Shown: in pieces, positions 21,301-64,000 of the stretch
Layout of the letters: the number at the start of each line of letters is the position of its first letter
Position numbering within the stretch: the first letter of the stretch is position 1
Source of the DNA: Auanema rhodensis
Taxonomy: Eukaryota; Animalia; Nematoda
Direction: 5' to 3'
Length of the DNA: 64,000 nt
Assembly (NCBI GenBank): GCA_964057225.1
Contig: OZ059900.1
Span: 14,384,001 to 14,448,000 of the forward strand
Program-made: the position numbers and the translations under genes
The notes under the pieces: generated by a model
Told to the model about the DNA's origin: nothing
Database searches by the model: none
Seen by the model: the letters and a program-made list of their open reading frames with translations, nothing else

Positions 21301-21420
21301 CTTCAATTAGCTCTTTGAGTAAAATAGGCCATAAATCAAGATATCTTAGAGACAGTGTTTCATTTTTCTACTTTAATTCAAACTCACACTCTCAATGAAA
21401 GTTTCTAAGTGCAAATTCAA

Positions 21421-21492
21421 TCCTCGGTAGTATAGTGGTGAGTATCCGCGTCTGTCACATGCGAGACCCGGGTTCAATTCCCGGCCGGGGAG
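21421..21492 (+). tRNA. tRNA-Asp(GTC), representative of six plus-strand copies in the inverted block
   Basis: The same 72-nt sequence reads directly on the + strand, followed by aatgtttttg. Confidence 0.97.
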
Positions 21493-22995
21493 AATGTTTT
21501 TGTTCTGATTCATCGTTATTGAATCTTATGATATTTTTGTTTCTTTCCAAAAGTCGGATAAAAAAGATAATTATTAGAAAAAAGGTTGTTTTAAACTTTC
21601 TGTTTTTTCAAAAGTGATTTGAGCTTGTGTTTTTTTTCTAAATTGTTAAACATTTCCATTTAATTTAAATGTTCTATCTCAATTACGATGAAAAAAATTG
21701 AAACGTCAGCGTTAATCAATTGTTCATTGTAACACCAAACTTCAATTAGCTCTTTGAGTAAAGTAGGCCATAAATCAAGATATGTTAGAGACAGTGTTTC
21801 ATTTTTCTACTTTAATTCAAACTCACACTCTTAATGAAAGTTTTTAAGTGCAAATTCAATCCTCGGTAGTATAGTCGTGAGTATCCGCGTCTGTCACATG
21901 CGAGACCCGGGTTCAATTCCCGGCCGGGGAGAATGTTTTTGTTCTGATTCATCGTTATTGAATGTTATGCTATTTTTGTTTTTTTCCAAAAGTCGGATAA
22001 AAAAGATAATTATGAGAAAAAAGGTTGTTTTAAACTTTCTGTTTTTTCAAAAGTGATTTGAGCTTGTGTTTTTTTTCTAAATTGTTAAACATTTCCATTT
22101 AATTTAAATGTTCTATCTCAATTACGATGAAAAAAATTGAAACGTCAGCGTTAATCAATTGTTCATTCTAACACCAAACTTCAATTAGCTCTTTGAGTAA
22201 AATAGGCCATAAATCAAGATATCTTAGAGACAGTGTTTCATTTTTCTACTTTAATTCAAACTCACACTCTCAATGAAAGTTTCTAAGTGCAAATTCAATC
22301 CTCGGTAGTATAGTGGTGAGTATCCGCGTCTGTCACATGCGAGACCCGGGTTCAATTCCCGGCCGGGGAGAATGTTTTTGTTCTGATTCATCGTTATTGA
22401 ATCTTATGATATTTTTGTTTCTTTCCAAAAGTCGGATAAAAAAGATAATTATTAGAAAAAAGGTTGTTTTAAACTTTCTGTTTTTTCAAAAGTGATTTGA
22501 GCTTGTGTTTTTTTTCTAAATTGTTAAACATTTCCATTTAATTTAAATGTTCTATCTCAATTACGATGAAAAAAATTGAAACGTCAGCGTTAATCAATTG
22601 TTCATTGTAACACCAAACTTCAATTAGCTCTTTGAGTAAAGTAGGCCATAAATCAAGATATGTTAGAGACAGTGTTTCATTTTTCTACTTTAATTCAAAC
22701 TCACACTCTTAATGAAAGTTTTTAAGTGCAAATTCAATCCTCGGTAGTATAGTCGTGAGTATCCGCGTCTGTCACATGCGAGACCCGGGTTCAATTCCCG
22801 GCCGGGGAGAATGTTTTTGTTCTGATTCATCGTTATTGAATGTTATGCTATTTTTGTTTTTTTCCAAAAGTCGGATAAAAAAGATAATTATGAGAAAAAA
22901 GGTTGTTTTAAACTTTCTGTTTTTTCAAAAGTGATTTGAGCTTGTGTTTTTTTCCTAAATTGTTAAACATTTCCATTTAATTTAAATGTTCTATC

Positions 22996-24057
22996 TCAAT
23001 TACGATGAAAAAAATTGAAATTTCGTTTTCTAGTGTCCATTAAACTGAATTCATAAATTCGTGAAGAGAGATGTTGATAAATGTCATCCATTGATTGATC
23101 TAGAGGATCTGGTTGACGATATAGTTCACTCATTATATAATGAGGAAATTTTTCAGCGCAAATAGTAAAGAAAAATGCAGGACAAATATGACTTCCAGCG
23201 GCTGTAATTTGACGATCATAGCTTTGGATCAAATCAAATAATTGCTTACAGCTTTTTGCATCAGAAGCAGGAGATAAATTTTTCATTTTCCTCAATAATT
23301 GAAGTTTATCTGTAGCATATCTCATATATGCATCTTCAAGTGCTTTTCTCAGTAAGAGATAGTTGTTTTCATTAGGTTCAATACCCCTTATAACGACCAA
23401 AGCTTTATCGGATAAGCCTTCGAGTAAAATGTTCACTTTATCAAGTATGGAATATTGTGAATTTTGATGTATCATGTTATTAAATCTTGACCAATACAGT
23501 TTGAAATTTTCGGGTGTACCATCGAAAGTCGGTATTTGTGTTACCGGACGTTGAATGTGATTGCTTGTTTGTAACAATTGTAATAAATTTGAATAAATTT
23601 GTGTTGTTTCGGAACCAGTGCTTTCGATTACTTTTTCTTTCTTTTTCTCGGGAAGTAGTGATTCCACGAATGCAATTGCTGTTTTAATATGACTGATACG
23701 GTCAAGGAGTAATAATCTTTGTTCGTCAGCTATATTGTAAGCTTGACGATTGTTTGGATTTTCTTCAAGTTCTTCGTATAATGCTTTCATTTCGTTTCGA
23801 AGTTCCTTATCAGAATCTTTGAAAACGGTTTGGTATTTTTCTATGTTTCTGTTCACTGTGTCGAGAGCAGTAGAGAGCTCGTTCAATACCAATTCATGAT
23901 TGCGTAAAGTTGATTGCAGTAAAATAATTCTATCGTATGTTATTTCTGAATCAGATACCCCGGCGGGTTCGTTGTCGAGAAGATTTGCGTAACGTTTGAG
24001 CAAAACGGATAAGAAGTCGTATGAACGACGAATGTCGCCAACAAATGAGGAGGCCAT
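22996..24057 (-). pseudogene. gag: Truncated BEL gag (first ~346 aa) running into array DNA
   Basis: Identical to the N-terminus of ORF 30538-33651 up to MDTRKRN, followed by 7 array-derived codons. Confidence 0.92.
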
Positions 24058-24412
24058 TTCTAACGCTGTGTGAGGCGTAATAGGTAAGCTTCTATAGCTG
24101 ATAATGATGAATAAAATTCAGAAAATGAGAGAGAACAAGAAATGAAAGTTGTACAAAGTACAACAAATGAGTATGAGATATACGACTTGTCGTATCTTGG
24201 AGCGTTATTATGCTCCGAAATTATATCGATTACTGCAGGCAAATTCACGCCTGAGCTGATGGACTTAAGAGTCGCCACCAAATTAAATGATAAAGTACCT
24301 GTTGAAGCAGTGACCTGAGTCGTGATGGTCGATGCACCAATGTCGCTTAGGCGAAGGTATTCGGTTGTCGGTTTTCCGAAAAAATAATGAAAAATAATCG
24401 CTAACCGCGACA
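23019..24412 (-). mobile_element. Truncated inverted duplicate of the 5' end of the BEL/Pao insertion (short LTR, PBS, gag N-terminus)
   Basis: Reverse complement of 30183-31576. The flank 24413-24969 matches 30182-29626, including diagnostic unit variants, so this is a copy of the same insertion and not a new one. Confidence 0.95.
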
Positions 24413-24969
24413 TTTCATTTTTCTACTATATTTCAAACTCACACTCTTAATGAAAGTTTCTAAGTGCAAATTCAATCCTCGGTAGTATAGTCGTGAGTAT
24501 CCGCGTCTGTCACATGCGAGACCCGGGTTCAATTCCCGGCCGGGGAGAATGTTTTTGTTCTGATTCATCGTTATTGAATGTTATGCTATTTTTGTTTTTT
24601 TCCAAAAGTCGGATAAAAAAGATAATTATTAGAAAAAAGGTTGTTTTAAACTTTCTGTTTTTTCAAAAGTGATTTGAGCTTGTGTTTTTTTTCTAAATTG
24701 TTAAACATTTCCATTTAATTTAAATGTTCTATCTCAATTACGATGAAAAAAAACGGAACGTCAGCGTTAATCAATTGTTCATTTTAACACCAAACTTCAA
24801 TTAGCTCTTTGAGTAAAGTAGGCCATAAATCAATATATGTTAGAGTCAGTGTTTCATTTTTCTACTATATTTCAAACTCACACTCTTAATGAAAGTTTCT
24901 AAGTGCAAATTCAATCCTCGGTAGTATAGTGGTGAGTATCCGCGTCTGTCACATGCGAGACCCGGGTTC

Positions 24970-30182: not shown

Positions 30183-30254
30183 TGTCGCGGTTAGCGATTA
30201 TTTTTCATTATTTTTTCGGAAAACCGACAACCGAATACCTTCGCCTAAGCGACA
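30183..30254 (+). repeat. 5' LTR, only 72 bp
   Basis: Starts TGTCGC, ends GCGACA, is followed by the PBS, and aligns to the two ends of the 305-bp 3' LTR. Confidence 0.9.
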
Positions 30255-30255
30255 T

Positions 30256-30268
30256 TGGTGCATCGACC
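30256..30268 (+). promoter_or_regulatory. Primer binding site, tRNA-Gly(GCC)
   Basis: TGGTGCATCGACC lies 1 nt after the LTR and is complementary to ...GGUCGAUGCACCA, the 3' end of nematode tRNA-Gly(GCC) as recalled. Confidence 0.88.
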
Positions 30269-30537
30269 ATCACGACTCAGGTCACTGCTTCAACAGGTAC
30301 TTTATCATTTAATTTGGTGGCGACTCTTAAGTCCATCAGCTCAGGCGTGAATTTGCCTGCAGTAATCGATATAATTTCGGAGCATAATAACGCTCCAAGA
30401 TACGACAAGTCGTATATCTCATACTCATTTGTTGTACTTTGTACAACTTTCATTTCTTGTTCTCTCTCATTTTCTGAATTTTATTCATCATTATCAGCTA
30501 TAGAAGCTTACCTATTACGCCTCACACAGCGTTAGAA

Positions 30538-33500
30538 ATGGCCTCCTCATTTGTTGGCGACATTCGTCGTTCATACGACTTCTTATCCGTTTTGCTCAAA
30601 CGTTACGCAAATCTTCTCGACAACGAACCCGCCGGGGTATCTGATTCAGAAATAACATACGATAGAATTATTTTACTGCAATCAACTTTACGCAATCATG
30701 AATTGGTATTGAACGAGCTCTCTACTGCTCTCGACACAGTGAACAGAAACATAGAAAAATACCAAACCGTTTTCAAAGATTCTGATAAGGAACTTCGAAA
30801 CGAAATGAAAGCATTATACGAAGAACTTGAAGAAAATCCAAACAATCGTCAAGCTTACAATATAGCTGACGAACAAAGATTATTACTCCTTGACCGTATC
30901 AGTCATATTAAAACAGCAATTGCATTCGTGGAATCACTACTTCCCGAGAAAAAGAAAGAAAAAGTAATCGAAAGCACTGGTTCCGAAACAACACAAATTT
31001 ATTCAAATTTATTACAATTGTTACAAACAAGCAATCACATTCAACGTCCGGTAACACAAATACCGACTTTCGATGGTACACCCGAAAATTTCAAACTGTA
31101 TTGGTCAAGATTTAATAACATGATACATCAAAATTCACAATATTCCATACTTGATAAAGTGAACATTTTACTCGAAGGCTTATCCGATAAAGCTTTGGTC
31201 GTTATAAGGGGTATTGAACCTAATGAAAACAACTATCTCTTACTGAGAAAAGCACTTGAAGATGCATATATGAGATATGCTACAGATAAACTTCAATTAT
31301 TGAGGAAAATGAAAAATTTATCTCCTGCTTCTGATGCAAAAAGCTGTAAGCAATTATTTGATTTGATCCAAAGCTATGATCGTCAAATTACAGCCGCTGG
31401 AAGTCATATTTGTCCTGCATTTTTCTTTACTATTTGCGCTGAAAAATTTCCTCATTATATAATGAGTGAACTATATCGTCAACCAGATCCTCTAGATCAA
31501 TCAATGGATGACATTTATCAACATCTCTCTTCACGAATTTATGAATTCAGTTTAATGGACACTAGAAAACGAAATTCAGAACATGACTCACATAATTCAC
31601 CAAATCGTGGAAAACATGTTGATAAAACTTTCGACAAATCCACTAAAAAGATTTGGACTTGTGTTTTTTGTGGTAAAGAAGGACATCCATCTTATTATTG
31701 CCGTACTTATGACACACCACAGAAAAAACGTGAAATCTTAAAGAACAAAGAAGTATGCTGGCTTTGTTTCTCTACTTCACATCGCAGTCGTGATTGTTCT
31801 CGACCGAAATGCCCGAAATGCAAAAATGAGCACAACAGTTGCTTATGTCTAAATTTAGATCGTGAAACAAAGAGTCCTGTAAAACCTATATCGTCCACAA
31901 GCATGATTATAACAGAAAGTGCAGGACAACAAACTCCAGACCTTACAGTCTCACAAAATAAAAATGACATCATTTCTACACCAACTGTATCACAAACAGT
32001 ACCTACAGTACAACCAGCATTTTTCAATCATCTACCAGTAACATTAATAGTTACTGAACCTAAGAATACACAATTACAATTGCTCACACATACCGAGGAT
32101 ACCCATGATATCGAGATGAGTCAAATTGTATTGAAAACAGCTATGACACATATATTCAGTTACACACAAAATAAATATATCACAGTAAAGGTAGTGATTG
32201 ACAGTGGCTCTATGCGGTCTTTCATACGTAGTGATATAGCTAAGGATCTTCAATTGCCTATTAACAAAGTTCAACATCGCACATTCTTTGGAATAGGTGG
32301 CCTCAGCGAAACACATGAATGTAAAGAAGTGAAAACTATTTTTTATACTTCTAATGGCAGTATCATCATAACCAACATGCTTACGAAACCATTCATAGCT
32401 ACATCATTAAGAGCTCCACTTTTAGACAATAATGATCGTTCATTCATTAAAAGAAACAATATAACTTTAGCTAATCCAATGATTGATGGTCAGGCATTTG
32501 AACCAGATATTCTAATTGGATTAGATCGCTATAAGTTATTCGTTCATATGAATTCTGAACTTGAGTTACCCTCTACATTAAGAATGCAGAATACCAGTTT
32601 CGGTTATACCTTGTATGGGGAAATACCATATCAAAATCATTCTGTTACGTTAATAACAATTAATGATAAACCATTACAACATAATGATATGCTTCGATAC
32701 ATATTTGAAATTGATAGCTTAGGAATTAATACTTCTGAAGCTGGAATTGACACAACTATTGATTATTACGAAGATTATTCAAAACAGTTGACACTAACCA
32801 ATCATCGTATTGAAGCTCCTTTACCTTTGAAATCAAATTATCATCAATTACCAGATAATAAAGGTTTAGCCTTTTATCGATTTTTGGCATTGTTCAAAAC
32901 TTTACAAGCAAATCCTTCGAAATTGGAAATGTACAGGAAAATTATTGATGATTATATCGATAACGGTATCATTGAAGAAGTTCCTTTTGAAACTTCCAAC
33001 AATAATCATAATTCTGATATTATATGTCATTATATTCCACATCATGGGGTATGGAATACAAACAAGCCGAATAAACCTTTACGAGTTGTTTTCGATGCTT
33101 CAGCTAAAACTAAGGGTAAATTATCCCTTAACGACATACTATATACTGGAAAAAGTTTTGTGAACAATATTTTCAACATTCTCATTGCTTCAAGAATAAA
33201 ACCAATCATTATTACTTGTGATATTCAATCAGCCTTTTTACAAGTAGGCTTACAGAAGCAACATCGGGATCTTTGCCGTTTCTTTTGGGTAAAGGATCCT
33301 CAAGGAAGTTGTAACTCAAGTTATACTAAAGTTTTTCGATTCAAACGCATACCATTTGGATTGACTGCCTCACCTAGCATTCTAAACATGAGTGTAAATT
33401 GGTATTTATGCTCTTTGAATACTGACTTATCAGATGAAATATTAAATATATTATATGTAGATAATATTCTATTATTTGCTGATAGTATAGATGAAGCTCA

Positions 33501-33651
33501 ACAGAAATGTTCACTTACACAACAATTATTTCAAAATATTTCGATGCATGTTTGTGAATTCGCATCCAATAAGTCAGAAGCTCTTCAGCACCTTCATAAA
33601 GATGATATTCTCTCTGATTGTCCACTAAAAAATTCTTGGAGTACCTTATAA
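30538..33651 (+). CDS. gag-pol: BEL/Pao polyprotein part 1: Gag, three zinc knuckles, aspartic protease, reverse transcriptase
   Basis: IPTFDG..F..YW..F (DUF1759-type Gag); CVFCGKEGHPSYYC, CWLCFSTSHRSRDC and CPKCKNEHNSCLC; protease IDSGS; RT motifs RVVFDAS, DIQSAFLQV, PFGLTASP and YVDN. The frame is broken by an extra A at 33627-33632. Confidence 0.96.
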   Translation: MASSFVGDIRRSYDFLSVLLKRYANLLDNEPAGVSDSEITYDRIILLQSTLRNHELVLNELSTALDTVNRNIEKYQTVFKDSDKELRNEMKALYEELEENPNNRQAYNIADEQRLLLLDRISHIKTAIAFVESLLPEKKKEKVIESTGSETTQIYSNLLQLLQTSNHIQRPVTQIPTFDGTPENFKLYWSRFNNMIHQNSQYSILDKVNILLEGLSDKALVVIRGIEPNENNYLLLRKALEDAYMRYATDKLQLLRKMKNLSPASDAKSCKQLFDLIQSYDRQITAAGSHICPAFFFTICAEKFPHYIMSELYRQPDPLDQSMDDIYQHLSSRIYEFSLMDTRKRNSEHDSHNSPNRGKHVDKTFDKSTKKIWTCVFCGKEGHPSYYCRTYDTPQKKREILKNKEVCWLCFSTSHRSRDCSRPKCPKCKNEHNSCLCLNLDRETKSPVKPISSTSMIITESAGQQTPDLTVSQNKNDIISTPTVSQTVPTVQPAFFNHLPVTLIVTEPKNTQLQLLTHTEDTHDIEMSQIVLKTAMTHIFSYTQNKYITVKVVIDSGSMRSFIRSDIAKDLQLPINKVQHRTFFGIGGLSETHECKEVKTIFYTSNGSIIITNMLTKPFIATSLRAPLLDNNDRSFIKRNNITLANPMIDGQAFEPDILIGLDRYKLFVHMNSELELPSTLRMQNTSFGYTLYGEIPYQNHSVTLITINDKPLQHNDMLRYIFEIDSLGINTSEAGIDTTIDYYEDYSKQLTLTNHRIEAPLPLKSNYHQLPDNKGLAFYRFLALFKTLQANPSKLEMYRKIIDDYIDNGIIEEVPFETSNNNHNSDIICHYIPHHGVWNTNKPNKPLRVVFDASAKTKGKLSLNDILYTGKSFVNNIFNILIASRIKPIIITCDIQSAFLQVGLQKQHRDLCRFFWVKDPQGSCNSSYTKVFRFKRIPFGLTASPSILNMSVNWYLCSLNTDLSDEILNILYVDNILLFADSIDEAQQKCSLTQQLFQNISMHVCEFASNKSEALQHLHKDDILSDCPLKNSWSTL

Positions 33652-36600
33652 TGCTCTAAGTGATTCCCTTTCAATTCGATTCAATATACTGGAACTCTCA
33701 ACAGTAACCAAACGAAACGCATTACAACAATTACATTCAGTTTATGATCCTTTGGGTATAACAAATCCATTAATTTTACCCTTGAAGGTTATTCTTAGAG
33801 ATATTTTTGCACTTAAAACAGAATGGGATGATACTATACCTTCTGAATTATCAGCCTCTTGGACATCAATAATTAACGAAATTAATTATGCTAAGGTTAC
33901 TGTACCTCGTGTACTATCACCATCTATTGAAGAAGGTACATTATGGATCTTTGCTGACGCTAGTTCAACAGCGTTAGCTGTGTGTGCTTACATACAGACA
34001 AACAACAAAATGAGTTCTATTCTAGCAGGTGAAAGCCGCTTATCTCCTAAAACACCAATTACAATTCCACGTATGGAACTCTTAGCTATTCGATTAGCTA
34101 TGAGACTTTCTCACACAATATTAATGGAATTACCATGTAAAAAACTAAATATTGTAAGTGATAGCAGCATTGCGTTATCATGGATTTTAACAAATAAGCA
34201 ATTACCTGACTTCATAGCAAAACAAGTTCAAAATGTACAACATATGACCCGTGTATTAGAAGAACATTCGATTAATGTTCAATTTTACCATGTTACTACG
34301 GATTATAATCCGGCTGACATTGGTTCACGAGGAGCCAATAAATATCAACTTCAGGAGTCTATGTGGCTTCTTGGACCACAGTGGATTCTTAACAGAACCG
34401 TTCAAGCTTTAACACCATATGGTTCCTTGCAAGTGATGCATGTTTCACCTGTATCATTACTTATAGCTCAAGCTATATCTGTACCCTTGGAACATAACCT
34501 AGCTTATCATAACGGTCATTTTGCAACTTTACGTTTGTTAGCCCGTTTGGCTAAAATTATAAAAATTTGGCATTTAAAAACATTTAAAAATCAAAATGGA
34601 CATAAATTACGAAATATTTCACAAATATCAACATCATATCCCGTTTTAACAACTGATTTGAAGATACTACGTACTATTTTAATTCGACAAGCTCAAGATC
34701 ATCTCATTATTGATGATTTACGACGACAATATCCTGGTTATCATTTCTATCTTGATGATAACGAGATAATTCGAGTAAGAAGCCGATTACAAAATTCTTT
34801 ACTATCCTATGATACAAAAAACCCAATTTATCTTCCTCGCAACTCATTATTCACTCAACACATAATTATGGACGCTCATCGCGCATCTTTTCATCAAGGA
34901 AAAGAATTTTTGATCACACATCTTCGTCAAACTTATTTTATTGCTCGCGCTGCAGCAATTATAAAACAAACTTTGAAGAAATGTCATTTATGCAATAAAT
35001 ATCAATCTTTACCATATGGCACTCCTGATATGCCTTCATTGCCTAAAGATAGAGTGATATTAACTAAACCATTTCTTAACACTGGGTGCGACTTATTTGG
35101 ACCTATTATGCTTAAAAGTGGACATAAGGTCTATGTTTGTCTTTTTACTTGCTTAACCATACGTGCCATTCATCTTGAAATGGTCTATGATCAAACAGCG
35201 ACTTCATTTATGAACGCTTTCACTCGTTTCATAGCCCGACGAGGTTTACCAACCACAATGCGAAGTGATTGTGGGGGTAATTTTATTCTCGGAGCTCAAT
35301 TAATTGAGACAATACAAAAATCAGCTGAATTTAATTTCACCCCAGCTGATATTGTAGTCCATCTAGCCAAAAATAACATAAATTGGCTCTTTAACACACC
35401 TAAGTCTCCATGGAAAGGAGGTTCTTGGGAAAGAATGGTGGGAATTACTAAAAATGCAATGAAAAAGGCAATACAAAGAAATAAATTAACATTTGATGAA
35501 TTATTAACTTTAATTGTCAAAATTGAAGCAGTCATTAACACAAGGCCTTTAACACATCCAGATCCAAATAATATAAATCACGTACCTATTCGTCCTGTCG
35601 ATTTCATTTCGCCTGGTCTTGTTCTTTCCCTACCGGATGATTGTGGTTTTCGAGTTTATAATAATTCCATTGATATTCCTGTAATACAAAACGTTGAACA
35701 AGCATTAGAAACTTTACAACTTACTTCTGATGCAGCTACGATGTTTTGGGATAAATTTCAAACAGAATATTTGATATATATTCGTGATATATACAAACAT
35801 TCCCGAAAACAACCTTCAGCAAATGCCAATAAACCTAATATTGGTGAAATTGTAGTTATACATAACGATAACTTACCTCGTGGTCAATGGAAACTTGGTC
35901 GAATCACAGAACTTATAAGTAGTTCTGATGGATTCATTCGTACAGCTAAAGTTCTCACTCCAGCTGGGAACATCATATCACGTTCCTTAAATCATCTATA
36001 TCCACTTGAATTACGAAGTGTTTTACCTGATATGACATCAATTCCTCGATCTACTCCTTCCGAAGACACTTCATTGTCTTTGAAGGTAGGATCTGCTTCG
36101 GATATGATGAACCTTGATGCTCAACCAATACAGGAATATATTATAAGATCAAACTCACCTGTACCTTCAATCCATGAAACGAACAATGTGGTTACATGTC
36201 CTGAACCAATAGATATTAATAATCCTCAAAAAATTTACATACCTACGTCCAAAATTTCTTCGATACATAATCCGATCCTTGAGGAAGAAGCTGAATTACA
36301 ATTATGGGGTCCAGGTCATACGCCTGACGATAATCGTAAAAAATTACAAAAGAAAAACACAAGTAAAGCAAAACAAACCATAATTTTGCCTACCATTGAC
36401 CAAAACGACGTAAAACCATCTACTGAAACAAACGAAAAACGTGTTCGCACCTTACCTTTACGGGATCACATCACATACGCTTCGCGAAAGAATTTCAAAT
36501 CAGCAATGACGTCTGCAATTTTAATTTTTACAATAATATCGATATTTTTACCCGTAGCATCTGCAAATTCTGTAGTATGTGATGAGGCAAAGTTTTTATC

Positions 36601-38452
36601 CATACATTTGCTTGGAAACCCACATTGTGCTCCTCATCTTGCCATGTGGTCATTGTTCTTACCACTTTGTTGTTTATTTGGCATCCTTTGTTGTTGTATA
36701 CGCATAGGATTCCATCAATATCGATATAATTCCTGGTCTAATACTATTCGTTACATATCTTCTTTTTTCACACTTAGACCTCATACTCCGGAACAGAATG
36801 ATATTGAATTAGGAGTTATTGAACCTCCTCCAACTTCATCTGAGAATATTCCACATATAGAACCTAAATTATATCCTCCATTTTGGAAAAGAGGTTCTCG
36901 ATTATCAATTATCAGTATACTAACGATATTTCTGATTAATAATGCTACTGCTTGTACCGATCATCACGTTATTCATTCGGTTTCTACACATTGTCTGAAT
37001 CGTACTCAATGTTATCACCAATATAGTGATCAAATAGTTTTTTCTCCTGGAGTTAAAGATTTATGCCTGGATATAAAATTTAAAAATCATTCTATTGGTT
37101 ATATTCAAATTCGAAAATTATATACAAGTTATGAATGTAAGAAAACCACAAAATTTTTTACAAAGGCTACTTTGCCTAAACTAACTGTTGATTTTCGATG
37201 TGCTCATATGGGATCTTGTGATCAAACTTGTGAAACTATGAATCATCGCTCTCGTATTTCTGAATTCGAACCATATAATTATCCAACACAATCCAAATGT
37301 GTCCGGTCTTTAGCACATATATGGCGTTGTTTGACATTTTGGGAAAACCCTTGTCTTTTCTACAAATTAGAACATGTACCTACTTCGGACGACATATTTG
37401 AAGTATTTAAATGTGAAGATTGGACAACATCTTCAACTTTTGAAATTACAACACATATTGTTAAAGATAAAAATATTTATAATATCACAATTCCACCATA
37501 TTTGAAGATGAATTACTCTTTTTTCAATATGACGATCAATACACAAGACAAACCTCCTACTCCACTTCATAATTATTATTTTGTTGCTTCAAACAATCAA
37601 ATCTTTGCTGTTGAACCACATTTTCCATTTATGGTACAATGTATTTCGAAGGCAGACACTTCCGACAATTTTTCAAGATGTACAACGGTTATCGATTGTA
37701 CTTGTAACAAAATCAATAATGATGTTGCTGGCTGTATATGTCCACAACATAATTTCACACATTTTTCTCATATTTTACCTCCGTATATGGCAAATACGGA
37801 AACAATCTATAAACCCGATACATCCTTAACTTTTCGAACTCAGTCTGATGAAACTACAGTTTCAATTGATTCTGAACTTTTATATGACAGTAATACATTT
37901 TCCTATGATATACCTTGTCGTCCCTTATTGATCAGTCTCTCCGGATGTTATTCCTGTGGGCAGGGTGCATCTGCATTGTTTTCTTGTATGTCATCTAAAG
38001 AAACATGGATACCGATCGAGTGTTCAAAAGATGTATTCATGATTAAATGTTCACCCTTCAATGAAATTACAAATATCAATATTAAAAGAGATAATTCAAT
38101 CATAAATGAAGTTTGTCATACTAAATGTAATCATGAAAAAATTGATATAATTGTAACGGGACAATTATATTTTAATTCATCTACTAATGAACCAAATGAA
38201 ATTCATTCAAATCAGAATTCAGTTATAATACCTGACATAATTCCTTTTTTGAAACTTTTTAAAGAACACTGGATGATGTTTTCAATCTGCGTTGTTTTTC
38301 TGATCATCATATGTTTTTTGGGATACCTAGGTTGTACTCCAGCCATTTATTTTTTCTTGATCACAGCTTTCCGTACTATTAAAATCATAATAGATACAAC
38401 AACCAAGTTTTTCTATATTCTTAGAAATCTTTGTTTTGATAGAAGATTTTAA
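33630..38452 (+). CDS. pol-env: BEL/Pao polyprotein part 2: RT C-terminus, RNase H, integrase, envelope. Continues part 1 across a +1 frameshift (the ORF track starts it at 33752).
   Basis: The frame opens with KILGVPYN...TKR...YDPLG. RNase H: FADAS, RMEL, SDS, NPADIGSRG. Integrase: HHCC, GCDLFGP, RSDCG, WERMV, plus a DUF5641-type PRGQWKLGRI. The C-terminus is a Cys-rich glycoprotein with a TM segment. Confidence 0.95.
36953..38452 (+). other. env: Phlebovirus Gc/G2-like class II fusion glycoprotein domain (about 499 aa)
   Basis: Follows the signal-like LSIISILTIFLINNATA. Contains RCAHMGSC, PCLFY, EVFKCEDW and LSGCYSCGQGA, many N-x-S/T sequons, and a C-terminal TM. Nematode BEL elements are known to carry this family. 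Confidence 0.88.
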
Positions 38453-38560
38453 CATTGAACTAATTCCGTACTATCCTTAAAAATCTTACTATATAAGCAT
38501 CATGGGTCATTATGCGACGGACAACGTCGCAAAAGGCCAATGGCTTAGCTGCGGCGGCAC

Positions 38561-38865
38561 TGTCGCGTCGCGGTTAGCGATTATTTTTTATTCTTTTTTC
38601 TATGTTTTGTTCCATTTCAGTTTTGTTTTTATCGTTTTCCTTTACTTTGTCTATTTCAGATTGTACTTTTCGGCCCGCCTTCCCATATCTTCATCTTTGG
38701 GATCGGAAAATACGATATACCTCAACTTACTTCAACGGAGTATAGACGATCTATATTTTGTTGATATTGTTAACTTTCTCTTTAATAAAGCATTCTACCA
38801 CTGACTATCTGTTCTATTAATTCTCAGCGGAATACCGACAACCGAATACCTTCGCCTAAGCGACA
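38561..38865 (+). repeat. 3' LTR, 305 bp
   Basis: TGTCGC...GCGACA, AATAAA at 38784-38789, followed by the TSD. A near-identical LTR is at 63031-63337. Confidence 0.93.
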
Positions 38866-54556: not shown

Positions 54557-55318
54557 TCAGCCAGGCCTTAAGGATACTAATGGCGACGCGCGCCACCACT
54601 CCGGACCAGAAAAGAAAGAAAATGATGATAGCAGGCCAGGCGACGGAACTGCTGACAGACGTCAGCCTGTTCCACATATGGACGGTCGCCGACCGGCAAC
54701 CCGCGACCGACTTCCAGCTGGGACAAATCGAGGAGGAAGAAGGATAACAGCTGCACGAGGTGAATTCATAGTTTTTCTTTTCTTCTCTTTTCTTTTCTTT
54801 TCTTTTTCTTTTTATATTGTTTTCATTTTTTTTAATATTATTCCTATTACACTATTATTCCTATTCTAGTATTCTAATTCTAATTCATTTATATATATAT
54901 TTTTTTCTCTTTTGTTTCTTTTCCTTAAAAGGTCTAATTTCTTATAGCTGAGGTCAGCTACTTTTTCAATATAAGGCATGTTCCATACGTGTCTTATAAA
55001 GAAGGCGGTTGACAACGTCAACCGACTTTTGGTTAATAGAATTCAATAAGAAACTAGACCTGAACTACTTTTTGTATAAATTCAATTATATTTGTAATTA
55101 ATATTTTGCTATATAAACCCCTGAGAAAGCAACTAGGTTGGCTTTTCTCATAACATGTAGTTTCATTTATTTGATTATTGTATTTTGCTTTTATAGTTGT
55201 ATTTCCATATTCTGAATAAACTTCTTTTTCTCTACTCTCTGTTACTTTTACAATGGCATTCACACTATTAAAGTCCATATGGTTACCTAGCCGGAACCCT
55301 AGGAACCAATATGGAACG
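54557..55318 (+). promoter_or_regulatory. Putative LTR region (left boundary undefined)
   Basis: TATATAAA at 55110-55117, AATAAA at 55215-55220 and the PBS at 55319 follow U3-R-U5 order. There is no second copy to confirm this and no CA terminus. Confidence 0.55.
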
Positions 55319-55339
55319 TGGAGGTTCCACCGAGATTCG
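55319..55339 (+). promoter_or_regulatory. Primer binding site, tRNA-Gln
   Basis: TGGAGGTTCCACCGAGAT(TCG) is complementary to ...AUCUCGGUGGAACCUCCA, the 3' 18 nt of animal tRNA-Gln including CCA. Confidence 0.9.
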
Positions 55340-56449
55340 TCTATAAGAGACGAATCTCTATGGACCATTGCCGCTACTTTTCTCACCTTTAAATTACTTT
55401 CTCTTTCTTTGAAATCCTTTTTACTCTAAAAATTTATCTTGATTTCATATCCAAAAATTCTAATTAAATTTTATATTTCAAACTTTCAAGTCAATTTTGT
55501 ATCTAAAACAAAAACTCCAATTTAATCTAGTAATTCGAATTTATCTCTAAATATCATTCTTCTAACATCATTTCTGATATATCTATTGGAAAAAAAAATG
55601 TCTTATACATATTATCTATTACAATCTATATTCCTACTTTGTTCCTCTACTTTCCTGTATGTTTAAAGCATATAATGCATGAAAACTCTTTTTGGAACAA
55701 GCATATCAAAATATTTAACCACGAATAATATTAAAAACTATCAATTCATGAAATATCTTAAAGACATTTATTCATATTGCAACACTTACCCATAAGTCAT
55801 CTTGAAAACATCTTATCACAAGCTAAATTTTGAAAATATCTATTCATAAATCATTCTGAAAACATTGATTCATAAACAAAACCACTATTCTTGATATCTA
55901 ACGCATTTTTATGAGAAAGCCCCGTGAGAAACAATACCAGACATTCTCGGGACATCGCGCGGAGGCGTACACTTTTTGATATAAGACGCGCAATCATTTG
56001 AAATTAACCCTTTTTGGTCCCGTATGTGAATTAAAGAATATTTTGAAGTTGAGTGGTCCCACCTAGCAAGACCCAGGGGAACAGAAGTAACGTTAAAAGG
56101 GAACGTCTTTTGGGGGTTTGCTTAGGTAAGAGAAGTCTGGAAAAGTGAGTATGAGAAGCCTGTGTACCTGATCTTGTCCATGACTGAAAAGGAGCAATAC
56201 ACAGACCACTGTCTCATATCTCATGCCTCTTCGAGAGATAAGAACTTGGTCCTTTGCTAAAGGTCACACGTAGTTGCGGACTCGTGTATGAACCTGACCA
56301 GGCTATTCTCCGACTAGAGACCCGCTGCAGGCTGGCCCCCTGACAGGAACAGGAGTCGCGCATACCAACCCCATATTGTCTCTTACGTTTTGTATAATAT
56401 AAGCTCAGTCTTCGTTGGTTAATAATTTCCTTCCAGGAAACCAACAAAG

Positions 56450-59400
56450 ATGGCTGACGCAGCGAATCAAAACCCTCCGCCGGGAAATATTGCCCAAAAT
56501 GCTACGAATAGCGCAGAGAAAACTCAGACAGTGGAAGCAGCACTGCATAGAAACCAAAGAAAAAGAGGACCACCGGATGCATTCCGACCAGATGCGAAAT
56601 ATCCGAAAACGAACGCGAAATCAAAGAAATTACCCCCTATTCCGGGTACACCGCTAACTGCTAAGCAACTTTATACTACTGCTATTAAAACTACTAGGCA
56701 TGCAATTAGCTTGAATAAGAATAAAACATCATCCAGTAAATCTACGCCCAAACGCTCTTCTCACTCTCCAAAAACAGTTGTTAATACCGGCACTAACACT
56801 TGTCCTCCAAATCACACTTCTCCTCAACGCCTTGTTCAAACCGCAAATGCGGAAATCCTCACCTCTCCTATTCCTAGAAACTCTCCCTTTTCCACTGATC
56901 AATCTTTGCACGGGCACTCTCTGTCTCCTGTCTCTTCTTCGTCAGACAATAACGTAAATTTGACTTCGAATGTTACAGAGCAGAGAAGTCGCCCTCAAAT
57001 GGCAGAGCAGATGGAGCAAGACAACTCTCCTATTGCAAGAGCCCACAACGTTTCTATTCGCCATCACAAACCTACGCTTTATGATGGATCGGTTCCATTC
57101 AACCTCTACATGCAAAGACTAGAAGGATATTTCGATGCCCTTCAAGTCCCTATTGCCGAGAGACTTTCCCATCTCTATCTACTTCTCGGAACGGATAGAG
57201 CCGCTGAAGCTCTTCGAACTATACCAGCAGAAGACTTACGCCAGGGATGGAACCACGTCAAACGCATACTATCGGAGAAATTACAACCTCCAGAAAAGAG
57301 AGATGCAGCATTCACAAAACTCACTCATTTGAAACAAGGAGAGCACGAAACGGTACAAAATTTCGCTCAACGCTGCAGAAACCTTGCCTATGAATCATGC
57401 AACATGGACTCCACAGCCGATGAAAGAATACTACGAGTTTCATTCTTAGGAGGACTACGAAAGACTTTAAGAACACATGTCAATAACCGCAGCCCTATCA
57501 CCTTTGATGCAGCCGTGACTATTGCCGAAACTGTGGAAGCTGACGAGGATCCTTCGCTCTTGGTCAACAACTTGATTAAAGACGTGGAACAACTAGAGAT
57601 TACTAACGGTCTCATAAACCACATGAGAGCATCACAACAGGAGAAAATCTATGACGGATCACAAACACACCAATCAAGAACATTCTATGGAAATCAATCA
57701 AGACCACAACACCCACAAGAGCAATGGAATCAAAGAAGAGGAGGATACCGCTCACCAAGATACCAAGAGGATCGACAAAATAACCGTCACAACTTCAGAC
57801 AGGATAACAGAAACAATGGATATCAACGAGGATACAACAATTATCGTAGCCCCCAACGGTACGATAGATACAATGATCGATACAACAGCAGAGGAAACGA
57901 TCGATATGATAGCAGAAGGAACGATCGACAGGAGCACAGAGGAAACGACCGATACAACCGCGGAAACTGTCCTGATCGCGGATTTCAACAACGAAATCGC
58001 AGCACTTCATATGGACCACATAACAGGCACAGAGATCGCACAAGAAGCCCCAGCGTCCGTTTTCACGTTAACAAAGTAGAAAAGGAAACAGTCAAAACAA
58101 AGAAGACACTTCCGTTCATACCGCTATTCTTATCCGTCATTGCCCTATCTATGATACCTTGCCAGGCAGACAACACCTATCAACTCTGCATTGGCAAACG
58201 AGGAGGTATTTTCCTCGAACCACCTCGCCCAACCACCTGCTCAGACTATGCACACAAGGACGGAGTCGAGATAAAAACAGTGGAACTATTCGCAGAAAAT
58301 ATGAATTACAAGGAATGGGAAGCATGGAAATGCGCCAAGGAAATCTATAAAACGTGCGCCCACGACTTATTCTTCATCAGGGAAAATAACGTTACATTAC
58401 TCCGAATAGAACCAGCCACTCCACAAGAATGCCAAACAGCCATTCAAGAAAGACGACACATGGATAACGACCTCAATCGCGAAGCACCAGGACTATTCAA
58501 AGCCCCTATGCCATCTAATACACAATCAAAATCGTTTTGGGCATCCTCTTGCACAACCAAGTCAAGATTCACCTTAGAAAGAGGAATGATGACTAGCCTA
58601 CACGATGACACTATAATCTCCGACTTATTCATCAACACTGAAGGATGCACTAAGCAACAAGGAGTATGCAACACCACCAACGCAGTTATCACATGGATCC
58701 CACCCAATGATCATCGAAATTGCGACTACACGACATTAGGGAAATTCGAAGCACTAATCAACAATGATACTGTATTAATCTCGGAAATACAAGGGGCATT
58801 CATTCTCAAAAACAACACGCCAGACCCTACAGCTACAAGATGTATGAATACAAGCATCTACTCAACTGATAGTGGTACGTACATTTCCATCAAGGACTTA
58901 AAAACACACCGACGTCAAAAGAGGATGGCACCCCAAGAATACCCTACGAGATTCTTCAATATCACTATCTACAAATCACTTCGCCTCACAGACAGTTCTA
59001 CAGGTATACTACCTATGTACCAGACATATCGAAATAGGAAAAGACTGGACAACGCTTATAACCTTATGGAATATCTCAAGACATCTAGCGTACACATAGG
59101 TTTCATCAAATTCCTACAACTAGATTCATCAAAACTGAAGAACCGACTCTTATGGCACAACTACACTGACATCAACATGGTTATCCTGCACACACTTGCA
59201 GAAGCTGAGATTCGACTTTCTACGAAAATTGCCATCGAACACCTACTGCCATCAGAGATCACGGCAAAACTCAGCAAGCAAATCACTATCAGCGACTTTG
59301 CCACACGTCTACTCAACTACGAAGGCGATTATCTCGACCGAGCAAGACAAATAGCAATTGAAATAGCTCACACACCTACCACTCTGGCAACAGGAGAGAC

Positions 59401-60010
59401 TATTCCATCAATGGAGGACTATCTGTACCAACTGTACCCACCCAGGATGACAAAACTGCCTAGATCACGCACTGACACACAGTTCTACACCCAGATGGAT
59501 CAAATACAGGAGTTTCTTAATTATCTAGAGCAAAACAATCGTCTAACTCGGATATCAAAAGAACAAAGAGAGACAGAAAATAAGAAATGGGCAGATCTCA
59601 CAAAACAGGCAAATTCGTCAGCAATCGTCTTTCCCAACTATACCCTCATCTTCAACGGACACGCACAAAATTATGGGTTGCCCAAAAATCAACCTACAAT
59701 CAGACCTATCACGGATGAAGACAGCAAATTATTTCAACAAGCATATCTTCAGCTCATTGAGTCACCTGGTGCTAGCCCCACAACCACCACTACTACAACC
59801 ACCACAACCACTACATCGACTACCACAACAACTGCCCCGACAACTACTACTCATCGGACGTCTCCACCTCAACCTACAACTACACCAAGGAGATATTACT
59901 ATTACCAGAGTACAACAACTCCAGTAACTCCACCACCACGTCCTCTCACCACCACATCCCGCAGGGAATCTACTAGGACACTTCCAACAACTCGGACTAC
60001 TACAAAGTGA
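56450..60010 (+). CDS. gag-env: Polyprotein part 1: Gag capsid, Arg/Gly/Asn/Tyr-rich region, internal signal peptide, N-terminal glycoprotein half, mucin-like tract
   Basis: KPTLYDGSVPF...LKQGEHETVQNFAQR (retrotransposon capsid); hydrophobic LPFIPLFLSVIALSMIPCQA at 58109-58168; Cys-rich ectodomain; furin-like RRQKR. It ends at an in-frame TGA, and the frame stays open afterwards. Confidence 0.88.
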   Translation: MADAANQNPPPGNIAQNATNSAEKTQTVEAALHRNQRKRGPPDAFRPDAKYPKTNAKSKKLPPIPGTPLTAKQLYTTAIKTTRHAISLNKNKTSSSKSTPKRSSHSPKTVVNTGTNTCPPNHTSPQRLVQTANAEILTSPIPRNSPFSTDQSLHGHSLSPVSSSSDNNVNLTSNVTEQRSRPQMAEQMEQDNSPIARAHNVSIRHHKPTLYDGSVPFNLYMQRLEGYFDALQVPIAERLSHLYLLLGTDRAAEALRTIPAEDLRQGWNHVKRILSEKLQPPEKRDAAFTKLTHLKQGEHETVQNFAQRCRNLAYESCNMDSTADERILRVSFLGGLRKTLRTHVNNRSPITFDAAVTIAETVEADEDPSLLVNNLIKDVEQLEITNGLINHMRASQQEKIYDGSQTHQSRTFYGNQSRPQHPQEQWNQRRGGYRSPRYQEDRQNNRHNFRQDNRNNGYQRGYNNYRSPQRYDRYNDRYNSRGNDRYDSRRNDRQEHRGNDRYNRGNCPDRGFQQRNRSTSYGPHNRHRDRTRSPSVRFHVNKVEKETVKTKKTLPFIPLFLSVIALSMIPCQADNTYQLCIGKRGGIFLEPPRPTTCSDYAHKDGVEIKTVELFAENMNYKEWEAWKCAKEIYKTCAHDLFFIRENNVTLLRIEPATPQECQTAIQERRHMDNDLNREAPGLFKAPMPSNTQSKSFWASSCTTKSRFTLERGMMTSLHDDTIISDLFINTEGCTKQQGVCNTTNAVITWIPPNDHRNCDYTTLGKFEALINNDTVLISEIQGAFILKNNTPDPTATRCMNTSIYSTDSGTYISIKDLKTHRRQKRMAPQEYPTRFFNITIYKSLRLTDSSTGILPMYQTYRNRKRLDNAYNLMEYLKTSSVHIGFIKFLQLDSSKLKNRLLWHNYTDINMVILHTLAEAEIRLSTKIAIEHLLPSEITAKLSKQITISDFATRLLNYEGDYLDRARQIAIEIAHTPTTLATGETIPSMEDYLYQLYPPRMTKLPRSRTDTQFYTQMDQIQEFLNYLEQNNRLTRISKEQRETENKKWADLTKQANSSAIVFPNYTLIFNGHAQNYGLPKNQPTIRPITDEDSKLFQQAYLQLIESPGASPTTTTTTTTTTTTSTTTTTAPTTTTHRTSPPQPTTTPRRYYYYQSTTTPVTPPPRPLTTTSRRESTRTLPTTRTTTK

Positions 60011-62089
60011 GCAACAACGACCCAACCGATTGAGGAAATCAAATCTCACACTGGATCACAAGCACACCTCAATTTCCTACGAACACGAGCAGATATCATT
60101 CAAAAATACGACGATCAACTACGCCAACAAGATACAAGGTCCCACCTCCAATACTCTACGTCAAAACTAGAGGAGGAAATCTTACAATCTTTCCAAATAA
60201 CAAAGAAAAACGTATGCAGAATGCAAAATAAGCAGCTACTTACCTGGTGGGCAATCCTGCAGATTAATCCGACTATAGGAATTCGCACTATGCTTCGTCG
60301 ACAGGATATTTCAGCAAAGTTTGTTGGAGAACATCTTATTTACGTCATGCCATGCACCCCTGTACAAGTAACACGTGTATACTCGGATCACAAACGAGAC
60401 GATAAATGTTACCTGGAGACACCGGTAGACACGGAACATCACGGAAAACTCTTCATCACACCAGGATCAAGAGATTTAACACCATATGCCCACATCATAG
60501 CATGCGATATGGCTACATCAGATCCCTACAGAGAAAACAATCAATGGATGAAAGATAATTCAACATTGAATGTGACTAACTTCTCATTTTCGGATGAACT
60601 CACATCTGTAAAAATTGATCACATTAAGTTTAACAATTCCAACATATTTTCAAACCTCACGGAGTCAACATTTCCAATGGCACTGGCTATTTCCTACGGC
60701 TCTAGCCTAGCATCTTTACAAGCAACTATGCCAGGAAAATTGAAACCAGTCTTCAAACATTCTGGACTATCCAATCTGAATCCAATAGGAATTATAGGAG
60801 GAACAGTTGGAACGACATCAATGATAGCAGATAACATATCAAACAACGCGGAGAAACAAATCACAAATTTCTTTGGATACATAGGAGAATCAATTACAAC
60901 ATGGATACTAAGGACACTAGCTATTATTGGAGCAATCATCGTCACAATAGGACTCATAACTGTTACCATTTGGGCATTAAAAATATATGCATGTACCACA
61001 AGGATACCAATCAATCAAATTACATTCAACGAACAAGACGAAGAACCAAGAGGAGAGGACAAACAATTCGAATTAAAACCATTAGTCACTTCTCAGCAAG
61101 AGAAATTATATACAAGAACCTCTCGATATGATCCTGACGCCCCACTATCAGATAATGACTTTTTCGCCTATCTACCACGGTACGCTATGAAAGAATCAAG
61201 GATTAACTACATCGGAGGATCACGACTACCTTTCGTACCTCTCTCCATTCACAATCAGATCATTACTGCTTTATGGGACACAGGAGCTTCTATATCATAC
61301 ATGAAGGAAAGTACATTTCAACAACTACCGGCAGCAACAATGGTTATGGAAAAGACAACAGCCATTGTAGCAAACAAATCACGATTTTCTTTCCTGGGCT
61401 ACACAAGAATCCCAATTATTATCGGGAAGACAGAAATCGAGCACAAAGTACTGATTTCTGCCAACAACCACTGCCCAGCACCAATATTATTAGGAATAGA
61501 CTTCATAGAAGCTCTCAACAAAATAGGAATAAATACTTCCTTACGACCACTACAAAATTCACTACTAATTGGAGACACAATAGTACCTTTAGCACAAGAC
61601 TACGCGCCATGGACTGAAAACCACACGATAGCACACGTCGTAAGCCTGGAAACTAAACAGTTCTACCCAGGAGAAACCAGATCGCTTACATTGGAAGTAG
61701 ACGATCCCGCCTCTTACGAACAAGCTTTCATTAGAAGCTCACAGCGGACAGGAAAAATGAGTTTCGCCCCTACTACTTTCACCCCAACGGGATATGGAGT
61801 TCAGATATTTGCTACAAATATCTCTCCAGACACAATTGTAGTACAGACAAATCAAGGCATTGGAACAGCTTACGCTATCCCGAAAAACACGGAGGAGCAA
61901 AAAGGACAATATGTGCCACCAGAAGCAAGATGGGAAGATCAACTACCATACTTCCCAGAGGACTTTATAAAAGACCTCGATGTAACAAACACCATCTTTA
62001 CTCAGCTAGAGAGACAACAGTTAAAGAAAATAGTGCTCAGAAACAAGGAAGCTTTCTTAAAACGAGGATCGCAATATTGGACTTTTTAA
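60011..62089 (+). CDS. env-pro: Polyprotein part 2, same frame: C-terminal half of a gB/chuvirus-like glycoprotein, TM, aspartic protease, linker
   Basis: 60011-60220 is open and in frame with both annotated ORFs. LQY...VCRMQN...W....QINP...DISAKFVG...V.PC resembles the class III fusogen core helix. TM at about 60902-60994; ALWDTGASISY with DTG at 61277-61285; ILLGIDF. Confidence 0.85.
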   Translation, partial: ATTTQPIEEIKSHTGSQAHLNFLRTRADIIQKYDDQLRQQDTRSHLQYSTSKLEEEILQSFQITKKNVCRMQNKQLLTWWAILQINPTIGIRTMLRRQDISAKFVGEHLIYVMPCTPVQVTRVYSDHKRDDKCYLETPVDTEHHGKLFITPGSRDLTPYAHIIACDMATSDPYRENNQWMKDNSTLNVTNFSFSDELTSVKIDHIKFNNSNIFSNLTESTFPMALAISYGSSLASLQATMPGKLKPVFKHSGLSNLNPIGIIGGTVGTTSMIADNISNNAEKQITNFFGYIGESITTWILRTLAIIGAIIVTIGLITVTIWALKIYACTTRIPINQITFNEQDEEPRGEDKQFELKPLVTSQQEKLYTRTSRYDPDAPLSDNDFFAYLPRYAMKESRINYIGGSRLPFVPLSIHNQIITALWDTGASISYMKESTFQQLPAATMVMEKTTAIVANKSRFSFLGYTRIPIIIGKTEIEHKVLISANNHCPAPILLGIDFIEALNKIGINTSLRPLQNSLLIGDTIVPLAQDYAPWTENHTIAHVVSLETKQFYPGETRSLTLEVDDPASYEQAFIRSSQRTGKMSFAPTTFTPTGYGVQIFATNISPDTIVVQTNQGIGTAYAIPKNTEEQKGQYVPPEARWEDQLPYFPEDFIKDLDVTNTIFTQLERQQLKKIVLRNKEAFLKRGSQYWTF

Positions 62090-62255
62090 AGGACCAGTGG
62101 AACATAGCATCCCGATCATCGAAGGAAAAGTTCCATCTTTCAAAATCACGTATAGGATACCATTAGCGCAACAAGAAGAAGTGGAAAAGCAAGTGGAAGA
62201 AATGCTAGAGCAAGGAATAATCGAGCCATCTTTTTCTATGACTACCAGTCCAGCC
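62061..62255 (+). pseudogene. pol: N-terminal fragment of a gypsy-type reverse transcriptase (frameshifted, truncated)
   Basis: The +1 frame reads NEDRNIGLFKGPVEHSIPIIEGKVPSFKITYRIPLAQQEEVEKQVEEMLEQGIIEPSFSMTTSPA, then array DNA begins. Confidence 0.88.
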
Positions 62256-63030: not shown

Positions 63031-63337
63031 TGTCGCTTCGGCGAAGGTATTCGGTTGTCGGTATTCCGCTGAGAATTAATAGAACGGATAGTCAGTGGTA
63101 GAATGCTTTATTAAAGAGAAAGTTAACAATATCAACAAAATATAGATCGTCTATACTCCGTTGAAGTAAGTTGAGGTATGTCTTGTATTTTCCGATCCCA
63201 AAGATGAAGATATGGGAAGGCGGGCCGAAAAGTACAATCTGAAATAGACAAAGTAAAGGAAAACGATAAAAACAAAACTGAAATGGAACAAAACATAGAA
63301 AAAAGAATAAAAAATAATCGCTAACCGCGACGCGACA
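63031..63337 (-). repeat. 3' LTR, 307 bp
   Basis: Matches 38561-38865 apart from a few substitutions and a 2-nt length difference near 63180. Confidence 0.93.
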
Positions 63338-63445
63338 GTGCCGCCGCAGCTAAGCCATTGGCCTTTTGCGACGTTGTCCGTCGCATAATGACCCATGATG
63401 CTTATATAGTAAGATTTTTAAGGATAGTACGGAATTAGTTCAATG

Positions 63446-64000
63446 TTAAAATCTTCTATCAAAACAAAGATTTCTAAGAATATAGAAAAACTTGGTTGTT
63501 GTATCTATTATGATTTTAATAGTACGGAAAGCTGTGATCAAGAAAAAATAAATGGCTGGAGTACAACCTAGGTATCCCAAAAAACATATGATGATCAGAA
63601 AAACAACGCAGATTGAAAACATCATCCAGTGTTCTTTAAAAAGTTTCAAAAAAGGAATTATGTCAGGTATTATAACTGAATTCTGATTTGAATGAATTTC
63701 ATTTGGTTCATTAGTAGATGAATTAAAATATAATTGTCCCGTTACAATTATATCAATTTTTTCATGATTACATTTAGTATGACAAACTTCATTTATAATT
63801 GAATTATCTCTTTTAATATTGATATTTGTAATTTCATTGAAGGGTGAACATTTAATCATGAATACATCTTTTGAACACTCGATCGGTATCCATGTTTCTT
63901 TAGATGACATACAAGAAAACAATGCAGATGCACCCTGCCCACAGGAATAACATCCGGAGAGACTGATCAATAAGGGACGACAAGGTATATCATAGGAAAA
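63446..64000 (-). CDS. env: C-terminal part of the Gc-like envelope (partial, open at the window edge)
   Basis: The translation is identical to the C-terminus of ORF 33752-38452. Confidence 0.93.
   Translation of the reverse strand, partial: FSYDIPCRPLLISLSGCYSCGQGASALFSCMSSKETWIPIECSKDVFMIKCSPFNEITNINIKRDNSIINEVCHTKCNHEKIDIIVTGQLYFNSSTNEPNEIHSNQNSVIIPDIIPFLKLFKEHWMMFSICVVFLIIICFLGYLGCTPAIYFFLITAFRTIKIIIDTTTKFFYILRNLCFDRRF

Follow-up and report, generated by a model that had tools for sequence, protein, structure and literature searches.

Retroelements of the Ty3/gypsy type with a glycoprotein B (gB)-type envelope (env) gene in GAG-ENV-POL order are described from Nematoda, Bryozoa, and Platyhelminthes (Chary and Hayashi, eLife, PMC13524379). 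Supplement 1 of that paper lists 36 nematode elements, 'ancient errantiviruses' with an HSV/gB-type ENV, and supplement 6 counts ENV-POL matches in two Auanema assemblies, none of which is among the 36. The paper credits the nematode arrangement to Sacco et al. 2022 (J Gen Virol, doi 10.1099/jgv.0.001739) as endogenous retroviruses with flipped env and pol, assigns cysteine-bridge classes C1a/d and C2a/c to nematode elements, and describes how errantiviruses with a gB enter cells as unknown. An env in frame between gag and pol was reported in 2019 for the planarian element Burro/GYPSM1 (Arkhipova and Yushenova, PMC6431247), and the nematode belpaoviruses with env include Atlas and Cer13, with class II fusogens, and Tas, with a gB-like one (PMC9094657). 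The window analyzed here is a 64,000-nucleotide stretch of contig OZ059900.1 that carries gag, a gB-like env, a protease, and the start of a reverse transcriptase (RT) on its plus strand at 56450-62255. This locus is very probably a defective, 3'-truncated copy of a Ty3/gypsy-type long terminal repeat (LTR) retroelement with the published GAG-ENV-POL order, likely from a rhabditid nematode, and its family likely makes one polyprotein predicted to cross the endoplasmic reticulum (ER) membrane twice.

The gag-env-pol layout is not new, and the window element adds one broken member to a published kind. The original prediction, made from this DNA alone, had suggested that the domain order might be novel. 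The architecture is already catalogued (PMC13524379; PMC6431247), the outcome that the prediction itself had named as decisive against it. Its premise that env lies downstream of pol is incomplete.

Two stop-to-stop open reading frames (ORFs), 56426-60010 (1194 aa) and 60011-62089 (692 aa), share a frame and are separated by a lone TGA at 60008-60010, as had been predicted; the start given earlier for the second ORF, 60221, is in the frame of 60011-62089. One frame with this single stop runs from 56450 to 62086 through Gag, an internal signal-type segment, a gB-like ectodomain, a transmembrane segment, and a DTG protease. The polyprotein was analyzed as 1879 residues with X placed at the stop. 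Pfam identified Retrotrans_gag (8.9e-6) in the first ORF. In the second ORF it identified Monjiviricetes_fusion (1.1e-18), Glycoprotein_B (4e-7, under the curated cut-off), gag-asp_proteas (1.3e-6), and RVP (5.5e-5). Signal peptide and transmembrane calls were made by Kyte-Doolittle hydropathy only. Windows of 19 residues exceeded 1.5 in just two runs of the 1879 residues, aa 551-574 (58100-58171) and aa 1480-1516 (60887-60997), which are the predicted internal signal peptide and the predicted transmembrane anchor. Between these two segments lie 14 of the 25 N-glycosylation sequons and 14 cysteines.

Gag (56450-58099) consists of a basic N-terminal region, a capsid domain (Retrotrans_gag, aa 248-337), and an R/N/D/Y-rich nucleocapsid-like region in which no CCHC knuckle was found; a candidate protease site (FHVNKV, 58061) lies near its end. 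The N-terminal half of the ectodomain (58169-58903) corresponds to the beta-rich domains I/II and contains 10 cysteines. It is followed by the only furin-type site, RQKR at 58913-58924. The C-terminal half (60059-60886) comprises the long central helix of domain III, domain IV, and membrane-proximal helices, with the LQY motif at 60146 and DISAKFVG at 60305. Two further candidate protease motifs, IPINQI (61004) and SRINYI (61196), follow the transmembrane anchor, and the retropepsin-type aspartic protease occupies 61196-61520 with its DTG at 61277. The RT start lies in a different frame (62061-62255), is 72% identical over 64 aa to an Auanema relative (P0001), and is cut off at 62255 where a tRNA array resumes. 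The Pfam, hydropathy, and P0001 matches bear out the order Gag, internal signal peptide, ectodomain, transmembrane anchor, DTG protease, and RT after a frame break. An intact element has uninterrupted ORFs, a full RT and integrase, and two LTRs; the window copy has a stop, a frame break near 62060, and an end at 62255. These defects are a property of the window copy and not of its family.

Sequence and structure comparisons were used to identify the fold of the ectodomain. The ectodomain alone, with X at the stop, matched one Protein Data Bank (PDB) sequence, a gB (6.4e-4). Its N-terminal 534 residues retrieved 117 relatives, and an alignment of 60 rows was built from the window and 59 relatives, selected because they span both halves or are moderately long. 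Six cysteines and a tryptophan are nearly invariant in the ectodomain alignment. A profile of the aligned ectodomain matched herpesvirus gB in the PDB at 2.6e-18 and rhabdovirus-type glycoproteins weakly. AlphaFold with the 60-row alignment gave a 914-residue monomer with a mean predicted local distance difference test score (pLDDT) of 70.3 and a predicted template modeling score (pTM) of 0.49. The PDB rows listed by Foldseek were all herpesvirus gB (best E 6.4e-10). Among viral structures, rank 1 was the glycoprotein of Beihai rhabdo-like virus 3 (Nyamiviridae; E 1.2e-15) and rank 6 that of Nyavirus midwayense. An independent aligner (VIA) placed prefusion HSV-1 gB first (Z 10.7, root-mean-square deviation 5.4, 360 residues) and Chandipura G and Thogoto/Bourbon GP next; all 10 rows with Z ≥5 were class III fusogens. 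A class III (gB-like) fold of the ectodomain is predicted and well supported. The class III fold proposed earlier is supported by the Pfam, PDB profile, VIA, and Foldseek results, and the structure search against class III glycoproteins that the proposal had called for put gB and a nyamivirus glycoprotein at the top.

The same arrangement is found in nematode relatives. Of the 117 relatives, 20 were looked up, and the 15 that carry a species name are nematode proteins from Auanema, Aphelenchus, Acrobeloides, and five species of Caenorhabditis. A domain scan covered 28 long relatives chosen from 118. The glycoprotein precedes protease or RT in 14 of the 28, a Gag domain precedes the glycoprotein in 8, and Gag, glycoprotein, and RT or RNase H stand in one protein in 5; 4 are BEL-type with env after integrase. 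A Caenorhabditis brenneri protein (P0121) has the full order, aligns to the window Gag-Env at 5.6e-34 and to its Env-protease at 7.9e-38, and agrees in species with the catalogued Cbre_errantivirus_2 (PMC13524379, supplement 1). The possibility that other copies lack the glycoprotein between gag and protease was checked, and the relatives share the order. A word-index search found one long relative with the C-terminal half of env and, among proteins >2077 aa, none with the N-terminal half, which is a weak negative. Some relatives carry extra domains: P0021, P0023, and P0108 have two protease-like domains, P0021 has an additional integrase-type zinc finger before RT, and P0040 has an RRM between Gag and Env.

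A 16-row tree of the env C-terminal half plus protease places the second window ORF as sister to the Auanema protein P0001 (100/99); proteins of C. japonica and C. remanei join the pair with 100/99 support. The window RT fragment matches 12/12 gag-env-pol proteins and 0/2 BEL-type proteins. A 12-row RT tree, in which no reference Gypsy RT was included, splits gag-env-pol from BEL-type proteins at 100/100. The nearest relative, P0001, has the order protease, RT, RNase H, integrase and is without Pao domains. The window Pol would be of the Ty3/gypsy type, judged by proxy from the matches of the RT fragment and the domain order of P0001.

DNA runs were used to distinguish the state of the family from that of the window copy. 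Eleven runs from three studies contain at least half of the stretch, and no RNA run is among the listed holders. Contigs of three of the eleven runs, from two studies, were compared; the best-covering run, X1, was left out. TGA 60008-60010 and the frame break are absent from the contigs in 3/3 runs, and the contigs of 3/3 runs extend past 62251 into non-array sequence. P0001 is also unbroken across both positions. The family state is one continuous frame because the contigs and P0001 lack the breaks, and this holds whether the breaks are private mutations or assembly errors, which contigs, masking rare variants as they do, cannot separate. The single-protein relatives and the unbroken contigs support a single, predicted membrane-spanning polyprotein as the state of the family. 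Across 5489 letters compared with seven X6 contigs, the window shows 28 differences (~0.5%). The last 170 bases (62087-62251) are far more divergent, with 14 letters in 340-380 differing from the main contigs of the three runs, which suggests a sister subfamily or a recombinant end.

Assembly or sequencing artefacts could have produced both breaks as well as the truncated position within the tRNA array, in which case the genome would hold complete copies only. Long, near-identical tandem arrays assemble poorly, and neither array junction is spanned by any contig among those listed. The divergence from the contigs of other samples extends throughout, as in an aged copy, and the junctions are sharp on both sides, which makes an artefact unlikely. 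The domain order, the single frame, the LTR with its primer-binding site (PBS), the two hydrophobic segments, and the gB-like sequence match are properties of the element, and the breaks are found in the window copy only. The window copy is unable to complete the cycle proposed below: its mucin-like spacer contains a stop, the frame is broken ahead of RT, and the second LTR is gone along with integrase, RNase H, and most of RT.

Two hydrophobic segments in one frame, given standard translocon behavior, predict a cytosolic Gag, a lumenal Env, and a cytosolic Pol. Gag would be synthesized in the cytosol. The internal signal peptide would then open translocation and be followed by a signal peptidase cut. 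The glycosylated ectodomain would fold in the lumen, where furin would cut it just ahead of the helical insert. Transfer would stop at the C-terminal hydrophobic segment, leaving protease, RT, RNase H, and integrase back in the cytosol. Cutting by the element protease at [IV]N-type sites would free Gag from the signal-peptide stub and protease from the envelope tail. Membranes with Env trimers would be the sites of capsid budding, and entry into neighboring or germ cells would be by class III fusion.

Conserved sequence upstream of Env is consistent with this scheme. A hydrophobic segment precedes mature Env in 27/31 gag-env relatives, at the same place as in the window, and in 11/13 BEL-type relatives. 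Motifs of the [IV]N type can mark Gypsy protease sites. The pattern [IV]N-x-[IVL] was counted over the 70 residues that precede mature Env, in the 56 proteins with enough upstream sequence, and occurs there in 18/31 gag-env, 7/12 unclassified, and 1/13 BEL-type relatives, compared with a background of 0.18. This distribution supports release of Gag by the protease. The VN/IN motifs flanking the domains had been put forward as protease sites, and this is likely; those after the transmembrane anchor and before the protease are less regular among relatives. The proposed processing by signal peptidase, furin, and the element's own protease is plausible and partly supported. A literature search on the processing of nematode gag-env-pol polyproteins found no paper, which does not prove absence.

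Alternatively, most Env could be translated from a message that is spliced or has an internal start, with its in-frame place marking the capture site and the polyprotein topology not being the working route. If all three are made as a single polyprotein, Gag, Env, and Pol must be equally abundant, which is unusual for retroviruses, and some relatives have Met codons before or within the signal-type segment. The consulted portions of PMC13524379 speak of ORFs, never use the word polyprotein, and do not treat its topology. Against this, continuity of the Gag-Env-Pol frame is kept across distant nematode elements, and the protease-type motif just upstream of the signal peptide is kept only in gag-env proteins and is needed only if Gag is joined to Env. 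We regard a spliced or internally started Env as a long shot.

Programmed recoding was also weighed. Pol is commonly down-regulated by read-through or frameshifting in retroelements, and the frame break near 62060 immediately precedes RT, so TGA 60008-60010 and the break could tune the Gag:Env:Pol ratio. Both are absent from the contigs in 3/3 runs, P0001 is continuous at both places, and the stop sits within the ectodomain ahead of the core helix; recoding was rejected as highly improbable. A one-off chimera, in which a Gypsy element acquired a viral or BEL glycoprotein gene at the window locus, would fit the rearranged locus and the existence of BEL-type elements with a homologous glycoprotein (4/28) but was rejected as next to impossible, since the identical order occurs in Auanema, several Caenorhabditis, Aphelenchus, and Acrobeloides proteins, the stretch is present in DNA runs of 3 studies, and the BEL element of the window carries a phlebovirus-type class II env instead.

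Several points weigh against reading the locus as a Ty3/gypsy-type element whose polyprotein threads a gB-like Env through the ER. The motif pattern was fixed after the relatives had been inspected, and the rows counted are kin and not independent. The motif is missing from 13/31 gag-env relatives, and similar motifs after the transmembrane anchor and before the protease are less regular and occur in some relatives only. Furin-type sites are missing from several relatives. Many relatives are spliced gene models, which can conceal stops. The RT comparison used the 64 aa present and a tree without a reference Gypsy RT. A single-sequence model of the ectodomain was unusable (pLDDT 32.7). Foldseek TM-scores are low (0.15-0.25 by query length) with high root-mean-square deviations; the low global scores are attributed to the ~400 inserted residues in the monomer model. 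Processing, topology, particles, and fusion of the window element are proposals from sequence.

The element is larger than the 56450-62255 first assigned to it. The described domains are present in that interval, and the whole non-array insert spans 54557-62255 on the plus strand, with an LTR and PBS upstream of gag. A single putative LTR of 340 bp (54979-55318) starts with TGT and has a 9-bp terminal inverted repeat with 8/9 matching. One X6 contig covers 54965-55318 at a depth above that of the internal region. A tRNA-Gln-type PBS (55319-55330) directly follows the LTR. Its 12 bases are identical to the tRNA-Gln PBS catalogued for the Caenorhabditis elements Clat_4 (C. latens) and Ctro_1 (C. 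tropicalis) in supplement 1 of PMC13524379, where 8/36 nematode elements have a tRNA-Gln PBS. GAG-ENV-POL elements have an LTR followed by a tRNA PBS, and the putative LTR at 54979-55318 with the PBS at 55319 agrees with this; the second LTR was lost with the 3' truncation.

The segment ahead of the LTR (54557-54978) contains an ORF end at 54747 and an AT-rich spacer; it is tentatively read as the probable 3' terminus of this family's internal region, or else as an accessory ORF. Its contig depth resembles that of the internal region, and contigs run on leftward and have loose ends before 54554 and 54945. The ORF end (54559-54747, 62 aa) had no tblastn or Pfam match and an Atlas lead of 0.76 only. 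The order of the pieces, with an element end, an LTR, and then gag-env-pro and the RT start, may be left over from tandem copies or from a circle with one LTR.

Most of the AT-rich window is a tandem array (1-62994) whose 439-bp unit contains a single tRNA-Asp(GTC) gene; the array has 102 such genes and is 97-100% identical. At its left edge the element interrupts one of these tRNA genes, and beyond its right edge the array continues in a different phase (array phase 211 left, 0 right) with no target-site duplication. The phase shift and the missing duplication point, weakly, to deletion or end-joining rather than integrase. Four non-array stretches were found, at about 23015-24412, 30183-38865, 54557-62255, and 63031-64000.

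The other three stretches belong to a BEL family. The plus-strand element at 30183-38865 is of the BEL/Pao type and resembles Atlas and Cer13; its env follows integrase and is of the phlebovirus-G2 type (class II). Its two ORFs change frame near 33640, its 5' LTR is short, and a 5-bp duplication flanks it. Two further pieces on the minus strand, about 23015-24412 and 63031-64000, are 100% and 99.4% identical to this family. The piece at 23019-24412 looks like part of an inverted duplication of the array, which has a short inverted block at ~20982-24547. At two independent BEL insertion points, a tRNA-Asp gene begins 64 and 74 bp downstream; this spacing may reflect tRNA-gene targeting, or merely the short array unit.

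The ectodomain carries an insert after the furin site that varies among relatives. In the window, a predicted all-helical domain of ~210 aa (58988-59617; pLDDT mostly 84-90) is followed by a Thr/Pro-rich, mucin-like spacer (59777-60030) that is predicted to be disordered and contains the stop. Two anchor cysteines are ~100-130 residues apart in BEL-type proteins, up to ~590 in gag-env-pol proteins, and 498 in the window. Among the relatives compared, three Auanema proteins have clear counterparts of the helical insert (E 4e-41 to 1e-13), and a further three show weak traces of it. Pfam and Atlas gave no match to the insert, and fold searches saw it only inside the whole-ectodomain model. A word-index search found no long relative of it, a weak negative. 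The insert and the processing motif are leads; a literature search found no description of them, and Sacco et al. 2022 may already cover the motif.

A broader interpretation is offered tentatively and is, on balance, doubtful. Nematode gag-env-pol elements might be flavivirus-like retroviruses with a polyprotein threaded through the ER and a conserved [IV]N-x-[IVL] site releasing the capsid. The gB of the Auanema-like lineage might then use its undescribed 210-residue helical domain and mucin stalk at the furin loop as a receptor-binding or shielding module that replaces the gD/gH/gL partners needed by herpesvirus gB. The motif before the internal signal peptide and the variable furin-loop insert provide two testable handles on maturation and target-cell choice.

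The flavivirus polyprotein has a cytosolic capsid joined to a signal sequence, a lumenal glycoprotein, and a cytosolic protease that frees the capsid. The likeness is an analogy only; there is no homology, and flaviviruses have a class II fusogen, a serine protease, and an RNA-dependent RNA polymerase. The Nematoda endogenous retroviruses (NERVs) of Sacco and colleagues reportedly have a continuous gag-env-pro-pol ORF, a metavirus-type RT, and an env resembling Nyamiviridae glycoproteins. The window family shares the continuous gag-env-pro-pol frame, seen in contigs and single-protein relatives, and nyamivirus glycoproteins stand at structure ranks 1 and 6. NERVs reportedly have chromadorian nematode hosts and an accessory ORF; the nearest named relatives here are from Auanema and Caenorhabditis, and the ORF end at 54559-54747 is without a match. 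The belpaoviruses Atlas, Cer13, and Tas, LTR elements of nematodes, likewise include a captured viral fusogen in their single polyprotein (PMC9094657). They have a BEL/Pao Pol with env after integrase, whereas the window env precedes the protease, Pao domains are absent, and the RT matches 0/2 BEL-type proteins. In Burro, too, a single polyprotein places env between gag and pol in the same frame, and this env matches mononegavirus fusion glycoproteins; unlike the window element, Burro has a flatworm host, a ~4,900-aa polyprotein, many cargo domains, and CCHC knuckles (PMC6431247). The closest likeness is to the elements of PMC13524379, in the order gag, gB-type env, pol, the signal peptide and transmembrane segment flanking the ectodomain, the tRNA-Gln PBS, and homology to a C. 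brenneri protein. The window copy differs from those elements in being broken and truncated, and its family is closest to Auanema elements and carries the long helical and mucin insert.

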